Positions 4,300-6,361 of a stretch of 21,434 nucleotides of DNA are shown piece after piece. The notes below the pieces were generated by a model. That model searched no databases, was not told where the DNA came from, and saw only the letters and a program-made list of their open reading frames with translations. The translations under genes and the position numbers were made by a program. The stretch is from a virus (lineage: Duplodnaviria > Heunggongvirae > Uroviricota > Caudoviricetes): positions 1-21,434 of the IMG/VR virus record IMGVR_UViG_2695420514_000017. One strand, 5' to 3'. Numbering within the stretch: position 1 is the stretch's first letter; the number at the start of each line of letters is the position of its first letter.

Positions 4300-4322
4300 A
4301 AAAAAACCCAGCCGAAGCTGGG
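4300..4322 (-). terminator. Rho-independent terminator downstream of ant
   Basis: CCCAGC-cgaa-GCTGGG hairpin (4307-4322). The plus-strand A7 run at 4300-4306 gives a U-tract immediately after the hairpin on the minus-strand transcript. It lies about 20 bp past the ant stop codon. Confidence 0.7.
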
Positions 4323-4341
4323 TCATTGCGTTGGTTATCTG

Positions 4342-5220
4342 TCAGTAGTTATGTACTGAAGGAGGTAATTCTTTATTCTTAAGTCTCATCCATGCGGAAA
4401 GATTCGTTGGTCCGTCTGGCTCATTGATATCAACATCTCGTGTGTGATTGATTAAAACGTCCCTCGCCATTCCGATAACATACGAGAACTCATGACCGTA
4501 GTCGTAGCATCTGCCGGAATAGTTCGATTGAATTTGTTTTAATGCCGGATACAGTTCGCGGAATAATGCCTGTGAGCGATTGGCATAATCCCATAACCAT
4601 ACAAGGCTGTTTGCTTCTTTTGCAGAAAGCTCGTTGACTTTCCTCTCTTGTTTGCCGATAAACTCGCCTTCAAGCACTACCCTGTGGATGTACTCTACGG
4701 CCAGCGGGATTTGTTCAATTGAAAGTTCATCAATGCTGTCAATACCAAAACGCTGATGAACCATATTGTATGCATCGTCATAGCGAAGTCCTTTCTTTCC
4801 TACCAGCATGTTTACTGCATCGCGTAGCGGTGTTCTTTCCTCAACAGTGGTTTTCTTGCCTTTCACATACTCTCCATGTTTGCGAATCGAAGGCAGAACT
4901 TCTGCTGTTACCCACTTGCGGAATTTGTGCGGGACTGAACCTTTATTGACAGCATCGCGGCAGCGCAGAACCAATGTATACATACCTGATTCGCTAACAA
5001 TGCTTAGATTCTGCTCACCACCAAGGGTGTAACTTAAAGTTACTCCCTTTTCATCGTCATCAAGTGCAGTAAGCGCCTTGCGTGAGTTAGTCAAAGATAA
5101 AGCATCACAAACATCTTTAGCTACAAACCACGGCTCACCGCACTTGTTGATGACGCGGATTTCACTGTCGCCGAATTTGAAGATGGTGAAATCGTTTTGT
5201 GCCTTTGCTATACTTTTCAT
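4342..5220 (-). CDS. ant: Antirepressor Ant (Bro-N domain protein)
   Basis: 292 aa. N-terminal Bro-N-like motif ([28 protein letters not shown]...RLDDDEKG...[17 protein letters not shown]) resembles P22 Ant as recalled. Position directly downstream of arc matches immI. Confidence 0.85.
5186..5214 (+). promoter_or_regulatory. Candidate Psar: extended -10 promoter inside the 5' end of ant, reading antisense
   Basis: TGcTATACT at 5206-5214 fits the extended -10 pattern (TGnTATAAT). Weak -35-like GTGAAA at 5186-5191 with a 17 bp spacer. Predicted start near 5221-5223, just past the ant start codon on the opposite strand. Confidence 0.4.
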
Positions 5221-5292
5221 GTCAATATTTCCTAATCCGATTTGTTGATAACGAAGCCCTGACTGTTACCGCAGTTGGGGCTTCAACTTTTT
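5221..5292 (+). ncRNA. sar: Candidate sar-like antisense RNA complementary to the ant ribosome-binding region
   Basis: Plus-strand hairpin at 5253-5284 (GAAGCCC...GGGCTTC outer stem with an inner GACTG/CAGTT extension) followed by aac-TTTTT (5288-5292) is an intrinsic terminator on the strand opposite arc-ant. With the extended -10 at 5206-5214 this predicts a roughly 70 nt RNA covering the complement of the ant RBS and start codon, as described for P22 sar (68-69 nt). Confidence 0.45.
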
Positions 5293-5456
5293 GCTAGATT
5301 ACCTTTAGAACTATCCCGCCTTAAACTATCCACCAACCGCATTACCATCTCGGTATTTATTGAGCGGCCATTTTCTTTCGCTGACTTCTCGATTGCTAAC
5401 TTAACCTCTAATGGGATGCGCAAAGGGTACTTTGGTGCGTCTGACTTGACTATCAT
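5283..5456 (-). CDS. arc: Arc repressor (ribbon-helix-helix)
   Basis: 57 aa from the ATG at 5454-5456 with a GGAGG RBS 4 nt upstream on the minus strand. PKYPLRIPLEVKLAIEKSAKENGRSINTEMVMRLV aligns with P22 Arc (FNLRWPREVLDLVRKVAEENGRSVNSEIYQRV) as recalled. The ORF-track start at 5471 is a TTG extension. Confidence 0.85.
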   Translation of the reverse strand: MIVKSDAPKYPLRIPLEVKLAIEKSAKENGRSINTEMVMRLVDSLRRDSSKGNLAKS

Positions 5457-5474
5457 ATTACCTCCAATCAATTT

Positions 5475-5491
5475 GGTATAACCGTTATACC
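5475..5491. promoter_or_regulatory. Perfect 17 bp palindrome; candidate Mnt-type operator over the Pant -10 and start site
   Basis: GGTATAAC-C-GTTATACC is a perfect 8-1-8 inverted repeat. It overlaps the predicted Pant -10 (5484-5489) and transcription start. P22 Omnt is likewise a 17 bp near-symmetric site overlapping the Pant start, from memory. Confidence 0.55.
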
Positions 5492-5512
5492 ATTGTGATC
5501 GCAGTGATGCAA
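5484..5512 (-). promoter_or_regulatory. Candidate Pant (promoter of the arc-ant operon)
   Basis: On the minus strand, TTGCAT (plus 5507-5512), 17 bp spacer, TATAAC (plus 5484-5489). Correctly placed upstream of the arc RBS. Confidence 0.5.
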
Positions 5513-5521
5513 TAGTAATAT
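5493..5521 (+). promoter_or_regulatory. Candidate Pmnt (divergent promoter for mnt)
   Basis: TTGTGA (5493-5498), 17 bp spacer, TAATAT (5516-5521), about 24 bp upstream of the mnt ATG. Its -35 abuts the Pant -35, giving back-to-back divergent promoters as in P22 immI. The region between them (about 5491-5516) is the expected place for an Arc operator, but I could not define one confidently. Confidence 0.4.
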
Positions 5522-5544
5522 CACCAAAATGCTATGGAGGTGGT

Positions 5545-5781
5545 ATGTCACGCGAAGAGCCGCAAATAAATATCAGGATTTCCAAAGAGTTAAAGGCAAA
5601 GGTTAAAGCCAGGGCGCAACATAACAAGCGTTCCATGAATGCTGAAATAATACAGATTATCGAAGATGCTGTTTGTGGTAGATCGCTTAATAGCAATGAA
5701 TTTGCTCAGAAAGAGGCTGACAAATTCAGGGATGCGCTGCTTGAAACACTGAAAACCATGTATGGTAAGGATGCAAAATGA
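5545..5781 (+). CDS. mnt: Mnt repressor (ribbon-helix-helix maintenance repressor)
   Basis: 78 aa. INIRISKELKAKVKARAQHNKRSMNAEIIQIIEDAV aligns with P22 Mnt (FNFRMPMEVREKLKFRAEANGRSMNSELLQIVQDAL) as recalled. GGAGG RBS 4 nt before the ATG. Divergent from arc. Confidence 0.85.
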   Translation: MSREEPQINIRISKELKAKVKARAQHNKRSMNAEIIQIIEDAVCGRSLNSNEFAQKEADKFRDALLETLKTMYGKDAK

Positions 5782-5987
5782 ATAAAAAACAGTTTATTAA
5801 GTCAAAAACGTCAAGCAAGGAAGAGCTAGAGAAAGAGCTAAACTCCCTGAAATACGCTCTGTGTCTGGTTTACTCAAGACTGCCAATGGAAGATAAAAAC
5901 GCTATTTACAATGAAATGATTAGCAGCCTTGATTTTAACGATAGAGACCTTGCATCCCACCTCAACAGCTTCCGCGTCCCTGAGTAA
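5778..5987 (+). CDS. Hypothetical 69 aa protein translationally coupled to mnt
   Basis: The ATG at 5778-5780 overlaps the mnt stop (ATGA). Hydrophilic, predicted helical (KEELEKELNSLKYAL). No family recognised. Confidence 0.55.
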   Translation: MNKKQFIKSKTSSKEELEKELNSLKYALCLVYSRLPMEDKNAIYNEMISSLDFNDRDLASHLNSFRVPE

Positions 5988-6147
5988 TTCTGTTGCGGAT
6001 TTGCTTCTTGCGGTGGTTTAGGCTGGAGAGCTTGGCTTCTGCTTCCGATATTTGCGCATCTAGATCTTTAAGCTCAAGATCTGAAAGTCGCTGGTCAAGC
6101 AGGGTTTGGTTTAACTCAATGTTGTTCAGGCGTTCTTCTATGGTCAT
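5962..6147 (-). CDS. Hypothetical small coiled-coil protein (61 aa from the second ATG)
   Basis: MTIEERLNNIELNQTLLDQRLSDLELKDLDAQISEAEAKL shows heptad-like periodicity. AGGA lies about 8 nt upstream of the ATG at 6145-6147 on the minus strand. Convergent with, and overlapping by 26 bp, the 3' end of the preceding plus ORF, so it is uncertain. Confidence 0.4.
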   Translation of the reverse strand: MTIEERLNNIELNQTLLDQRLSDLELKDLDAQISEAEAKLSSLNHRKKQIRNRITQGRGSC

Positions 6148-6178
6148 AACTTTCATCCTATAACTATTTGGAATCAAA

Positions 6179-6361
6179 ATGAAAAATATATTAATTGGTT
6201 TCGTTTTTGGTGCAGCCTGCGCCGCCAGCATTAGCGTCATCGCCGCCCAGGTTGTTGGTGGTAACTCATATCTAATGGGCTATGACGTCATGATAAATGG
6301 AGAGGTTGTTTGCTCAGATCCTTATGTATGGACCTCGACAAAAGAAATAGAATGTGACTAA
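6179..6361 (+). CDS. Hypothetical small membrane-anchored or secreted peptide (60 aa) with two Cys in the C-terminal part
   Basis: Hydrophobic N-terminus [26 protein letters not shown] (signal peptide or single TM helix), then a 35 aa tail with two Cys (…[20 protein letters not shown]). Weak RBS (GGAA) but a clear intrinsic terminator immediately after the stop. Confidence 0.5.

Follow-up and report, generated by a model that had tools for sequence, protein, structure and literature searches.

The window analysed here, meaning the whole stretch of 21,434 nucleotides, contains on its plus strand, from 5221 to approximately 5290, what is very probably (a probability of roughly 0.9) the sar gene of a P22-like E. 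coli phage (Lederbergvirus, Kapi1-type). The basis for this assignment is homology in sequence and structure, positional identity with P22, covariation in both stems, the better folding of the plus strand, and the neighbouring arc, ant and mnt-like genes. The window sar is an ordinary copy of a long-known family curated in Rfam, and in that sense it is already known; the new part is bookkeeping only, namely that the gene is unannotated in Kapi1 and in RefSeq. The value of the assignment therefore lies mainly in annotation and in the reading of existing data, and the known workings of sar-type RNAs are unchanged by it.

Genomic context and features of the element

The immI region of the window is of the P22 type and lies inside the Lederbergvirus late operon, which is co-oriented with arc–ant. 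The nearest phage is E. coli phage Kapi1, which is 98.4% identical. The features of the region are the following:

4342–5220, minus strand: ant, the target gene of sar, an antirepressor of 292 aa (Pfam Bro-N and P22_AR_C)
5186–5191, plus strand: -35-like hexamer GTGAAA (consensus scan; 17-nt spacer to the -10)
5206–5214, plus strand: extended -10 TGcTATACT (TGCTATACT) of a predicted promoter of the Psar type, in ant codons 3–5
5221–5292, plus strand: predicted sar RNA, approximately 68–72 nt (5' end by P22 homology; 3' end in the T5 tract)
5221–5249, plus strand: hairpin 1, stem 5221–5227 with 5243–5249 and loop 5228–5242 (MFE fold)
5230–5233, plus strand: anti-Shine–Dalgarno UCCU in the loop of hairpin 1, complement of the ant AGGA
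5233–5230, minus strand: Shine–Dalgarno sequence (SD) of ant, AGGA, 9 nt upstream of the ATG
5253–5292, plus strand: hairpin 2, predicted intrinsic terminator of sar, with stem-loop 5253–5284, AAC and T5 at 5288–5292 (terminator scan)
5283–5456, minus strand: arc, 57 aa (Pfam Arc, E 2e-12; GGAGG before the ATG at 5456)
5545–5781, plus strand: mnt-like repressor gene, divergent from arc–ant (Pfam Arc/RHH domain)

The ant gene is the same 879-nt CDS that RefSeq calls in the prophage of E. coli CFSAN018748 (99.4% identical), and arc is the same 174-nt CDS in RefSeq for that strain; the stop codon and the last three codons of arc lie under the sar terminator. Identity to the P22 counterparts is 40% for Arc and 35% for the Mnt-like protein. 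Concerning Ant, the C-terminal 171 aa share 84% identity with the P22 protein, whereas BLASTP gave no match between residues 1–121 (window 4857–5220, minus strand), which hold the Bro-N domain, and the N-terminus of P22 Ant; the contrast between the two ends of the protein is that of a domain swap.

Rfam match and chance expectation

When the whole window was searched against all 4227 Rfam families, the only family above threshold was sar RNA (RF00262), which the covariance model places at 5222–5288 on the plus strand with 69.4 bits (gathering score 43; E 8.5e-13). The match spans model positions 1–68 of 68; P22 sar itself scores 97.8 bits with the same model. A homologue of P22 sar had been proposed in an earlier note made from the sequence, and the end-to-end Rfam match, the offsets shared with P22 and the Arc-, Ant- and Mnt-like neighbours all agree with that proposal.

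The sar element as a whole is far beyond chance, whereas the promoter motif alone is within it. In the window TGNTANNNT is observed 36 times against 43 expected, and a consensus scan of 4300–6300 returned one promoter-like site against 4.1 expected. Significance was for these counts not claimed from the motif, a line of evidence that was tried and dropped, and the promoter call therefore rests on homology and not on the motif.

Predicted promoter inside ant

The one promoter-like site found in 4300–6300 is GTGAAA-17-TGcTATACT, which spans 5186–5214, has TG upstream of the -10 and matches the consensus at nine of 12 positions. The earlier note had placed the extended -10 inside the first codons of ant, on the opposite strand, and this is confirmed: the element occupies codons 3–5 (AGT ATA GCA), the ant ATG being at 5220–5218 on the minus strand. 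The -35-like GTGAAA is a poor match to TTGACA. Its position is that at which the annotated Psar of P22 begins, with GTGTTA as the hexamer in P22, and the -35 of P22's own Psar is equally poor. The weakness of the consensus match (9/12, with its poor -35) and the chance frequency of the motif class in the window do count against the sar assignment.

Comparison with other phages gives firmer ground. The stretch TTGCTATACT is identical to P22 and sits at the same offset as the annotated Psar in an ungapped alignment, and the -10 TGcTATACT is identical in P22, epsilon34 and Kapi1. The pattern TGnTAnnnT is kept in 14 out of 14 homologues although the overlapping Ant residues vary (SIA, SLA, IVA, TIA and ILT), which argues for selection on the promoter and not on the protein alone. 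Also, the first residues of Ant (M-x-S-I-A) are common to the window and P22 despite the unalignable N-terminal domain, apparently because those codons encode the -10 of Psar.

Predicted RNA structure, terminator and correspondence with P22

The 72 nt from 5221 to 5292 fold into two hairpins at -29.7 kcal/mol (MFE; z = -6.9), and none of 200 shuffled sequences folds as well. Hairpin 2 has a stem of 14 pairs, seven of them G-C, and a loop of 4 nt. The strong hairpin and T5 tract described in the earlier note are both present (14 pairs, then AAC and T5), while their stated distance of about 70 nt from the -10 does not hold, as the hairpin starts 39 nt after it; a length of about 68–72 nt belongs to the predicted transcript. 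The AAC between the stem and the T-tract is not ideal for an intrinsic terminator and is a point against the assignment; the P22 sar terminator has the same AAC arrangement, followed by only T3.

A transcript with its 5' end at 5221 would be complementary to the 62-nt arc–ant spacer over its full length, including the ant SD, and would also cover the last arc codons. It abuts the ant start codon (5218–5220) and is one base short of covering it, as in P22, where the annotated sar misc_RNA begins immediately past the start codon of ant. The predicted complementarity to the ribosome-binding site thus stands and takes in the whole spacer, whereas complementarity to the start codon, which had also been expected, does not.

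The P22 record BK000583 carries annotations for Psar, for sar as an antisense RNA of 70 nt and for the sar terminator; sar is annotated in P22 NC_002371 as well, and epsilon34 carries the same annotated features. In an ungapped alignment with BK000583, the window -10, the ant start, the RNA start at 5221 and the hairpin at 5253–5284 fall at the offsets of P22 Psar, ant, sar and terminator. This alignment is the comparison with P22 sar that the earlier note had called for, and the promoter and terminator, besides being at the same positions, prove to be the best-conserved bases of the region. The hairpin 2 region (5251–5290, 40 nt) is 100% identical to P22. BLASTN homology to P22 around the site is limited to 5205–5290, from the -10 through the terminator, and the flanking genes are far more diverged, so that sar appears as a conserved island between diverged modules. 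Sliding identity taken from a global alignment with P22 was also tried and was uninformative, as gap optimisation inflates unrelated stretches to 0.5–0.7.

The window element thus resembles P22 sar in its locus (antisense to the arc–ant spacer), in the position of the promoter, in the start, in the two-hairpin fold and in the anti-SD of loop 1. The two differ in the stem of hairpin 1, where five of the six pairs are changed and all are compensated, with the 3' arm shifted by one base; in the anti-SD (UCCU in the window, CUCC in P22); in the tail (T5 against T3); and in how far they overlap arc at its 3' end (approximately 8–10 nt against 2 nt). The genes on either side are strongly diverged from those of P22, and the Bro-N domain at the N-terminus of Ant is unrelated.

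Conservation and covariation among homologues

The comparison set consisted of 13 fetched loci from related phages and the window (14 sequences). A match to the Rfam sar family is found in 12 of the 13 fetched loci, ten of them above the gathering score; the RF00262 scores of GF-2 and the Klebsiella phage are below this threshold. The Edwardsiella phage Edno5 gave no Rfam match at E up to 0.01, yet it has the same fold. Edno5, GF-2 and the Klebsiella phage were treated as distant relatives only. Folded each on its own, all 14 sequences (the window among them) give two hairpins, and loop 1 holds the complement of the ant SD.

In stem 2, all 14 pairs are kept, with 100% of cells paired across 13 sequences, and three of the pairs are changed on both sides. 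None of 500 shuffles reaches the observed values, and when the partner columns are slid only 32–51% of cells are paired. The formal pair count covers stem 2 only, because MAFFT sets the P22-type and window-type 3' arms of stem 1 one column apart; stem 1 was tabulated from the MFE partners of each sequence. Its pairs are G-U, U-A, C-G, A-U, A-U and U-G in the window, and G-C, U-A, U-G, G-U, G-C and U-A in P22; five of the six differ and every pair is kept. Further combinations are found in CUS-3 and SPN3UB.

Looking at individual phages, sar is intact (62–88 bits) in CUS-3, Emek, phiv205-1 and 611R6, all of which have a different arc side. An additional small ORF separates arc from sar in Emek, phiv205-1 and 611R6, and CUS-3 has no annotated arc, only a ‘boundary sequence’.

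A wider set of 117 IMG/VR instances was retrieved with the sequence of hairpin 2 itself. These share hairpin 2 and contain 29 distinct 5' parts, at least eight classes of hairpin 1 with the ant side, and about seven arc-side tails; the tails assort independently of the hairpin-1 classes. This free combination suggests that hairpin 2 doubles as a mosaic or recombination junction between modules. The extreme conservation of hairpin 2 could then partly reflect recombination at a mosaic junction and not selection on the RNA, which weighs against the sar assignment to that extent.

Taken further, the conserved island could be nothing other than such an arc-side/ant-side junction, or a cis-acting element of the arc–ant mRNA on the minus strand, or both, with no functional plus-strand RNA. 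We consider this very unlikely. The independent assortment of the two sides around an invariant hairpin 2 speaks for it, as does the CUS-3 ‘boundary sequence’ bsq2, which starts approximately 9 nt downstream of the ant start and crosses the sar match; a hairpin also forms on the minus strand. The minus-strand fold is, however, much weaker (-18.1 kcal/mol, z -2.65, against -29.7 kcal/mol, z -6.9, on the plus strand), because three G-U pairs become A-C mismatches, and the T-tract and the conserved TGnTAnnnT promoter are present on the plus strand only. Furthermore, hairpin 1 is maintained by compensatory changes, which a junction does not require, and the homologous RNA of P22 (69 nt) has been detected experimentally, by small-RNA-seq of infected cells. 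Such a junction may well exist alongside sar, but not in its place.

Even less probable, in our judgement, is a decayed or silent remnant, that is, a homologous sar that is no longer transcribed or regulatory in this phage. The poor -35 would fit such a remnant, and so would the immI of Kapi1, which does not behave like that of P22, its mnt being undetected in lysogens. As already seen, though, the -35 of P22 Psar is no better, the -10 is identical to that of P22, and the terminator is identical with a longer T-tract; the stem of hairpin 1 is intact through compensatory changes. The element is also found in 527 of 5426 complete E. coli genomes (approximately 10%), mostly at 95–99% identity.

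A small plus-strand protein gene in place of the RNA, at 5199–5297 (32 aa) or 5275–5481 (68 aa), was rejected and its probability is negligible: both ORFs are in the mechanical ORF list, but Pfam gave no match for the 68-aa ORF, which is wholly antisense to arc (in the earlier note it only overlaps the terminator), neither ORF is annotated in the RefSeq, Kapi1 or P22 records, the variation is paired-stem covariation and not codon-like, and past the hairpin the homologues have unrelated sequences.

Proposed mechanism

The sar gene of the window most likely works by the mechanism established for P22. Transcription of sar, its pairing with ant mRNA and the repression of Ant in the phage of the window are proposed by analogy with P22, following work on P22 that is cited in later papers (Liao et al. 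1987; Wu et al. 1987; Schaefer and McClure 1997). A sigma-70 promoter with an extended -10, located in ant codons 3–5, would fire towards arc and give an RNA of approximately 70 nt. Transcription would end at an intrinsic terminator, the stem of which overlaps the stop codon of arc. The transcript would form two hairpins, the 5' one displaying in its loop the UCCU that is complementary to the ant SD. As a cis-antisense RNA, sar is perfectly complementary to the whole arc–ant intercistronic spacer, and its target would be any arc–ant mRNA, whether made from Pant or by read-through of the co-oriented late operon. Pairing would hide the SD and block Ant translation, and the antirepressor could therefore not inactivate the prophage repressor. 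Since the late operon is co-oriented with arc–ant, sar could silence ant on late read-through transcripts too; these would be beyond stopping by operator-bound repressors.

The kinetics of sar–ant pairing in P22 have reportedly been described, and P22 Psar is said to be activated by convergent transcription from Pant; neither is used as evidence here.

A more speculative extension, to which we give low odds, is that sar is modular and is the main brake on Ant in Kapi1-type lysogens. Hairpin 1, which covers the SD and occurs in at least eight sequence classes, could be the specificity determinant. Hairpin 2 does not vary in the set that was retrieved with the hairpin itself as query; it could serve at once as a common recombination junction and as a common pairing segment of 40 nt. 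If this modular arrangement is true, the 40-nt segment could allow cross-reaction between the sar RNA of one P22-like prophage and the ant mRNA of another in the same cell. During lysogeny of Kapi1-type phages, for which mnt was reported as undetectable, sar rather than Mnt might also be the main brake on Ant.

Comparison with other small RNA systems

RNA-OUT of IS10 resembles sar in that it is a short cis-antisense RNA with a stable hairpin, which pairs across the ribosome-binding site of its target, the transposase RNA-IN, and blocks translation. It belongs to a different genetic element and also covers the start codon; we know of no sequence relationship between the two. In the immI region of phages P1 and P7, c4 RNA is likewise a small RNA that keeps an antirepressor, Ant, unmade by occlusion of the ribosome-binding site. 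Its gene, unlike sar, has the sense orientation and lies upstream of its target within one operon, and the RNA acts through short complementary boxes. It is not a cis-antisense transcript, and to our knowledge it has no homology to sar. The OOP RNA of lambda and P22 is, like sar, a small cis-antisense RNA of lambdoid phages that feeds into the lysis–lysogeny decision. Unlike sar, it is a member of another Rfam family and its overlap is with cII/c1 at the 3' end; according to the title of a cited paper, it acts by RNase III-dependent mRNA decay, and so not by hiding an SD.

Annotation of Kapi1 and neighbouring sequences

The sar gene is not annotated in the Kapi1 GenBank record (MT813197), and neither of the two Kapi1 papers searched mentions it, a point against the assignment; in the E. 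coli prophages that carry the element, the RefSeq annotation contains only the flanking CDSs and sar is absent. In MT813197 the antirepressor gene Kapi1_065 (663–1607 of the fetched locus) is 22 codons longer than the window ant and overlaps arc. It is longer because Kapi1 has C in place of the A found at window 5268, in the hairpin 2 loop, and so lacks the in-frame TAA of window 5268–5266. The conservation of the SD and of the ATG (window 5220), together with the RefSeq call in a near-identical prophage, indicates that the annotated Kapi1 start is over-extended across the sar gene, and recognising sar would correct it.

Also, expression of Kapi1_063, the homologue of the window mnt-like gene, reportedly could not be detected in lysogens, a result that its authors found surprising; their study did not take sar into account. 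A sar gene would add a post-transcriptional layer to this unexpected absence of mnt expression in Kapi1 lysogens.

Three further observations concern the sequences around arc, ant and the mnt-like gene. An ORF of 69 aa (5778–5987, plus strand) overlaps the stop of the mnt-like gene by 4 nt (ATGA); Pfam gave no match for it, and its Kapi1 counterpart (Kapi1_062) is listed as hypothetical. At 5474–5492, in the interval that separates arc from the mnt-like gene, there is a perfect 9-1-9 palindrome (TGGTATAAC-C-GTTATACCA), which overlaps a possible Pant (TTGCAT-17-TATAAC, minus strand). It is a candidate operator for Arc or Mnt and is unlike the P22 operators. Just downstream of ant, at 4305–4324 on the minus strand, a strong terminator-like hairpin (GACCCAGCTTCGGCTGGGTT) followed by T5 is found at the same position as the annotated ant terminator of P22.
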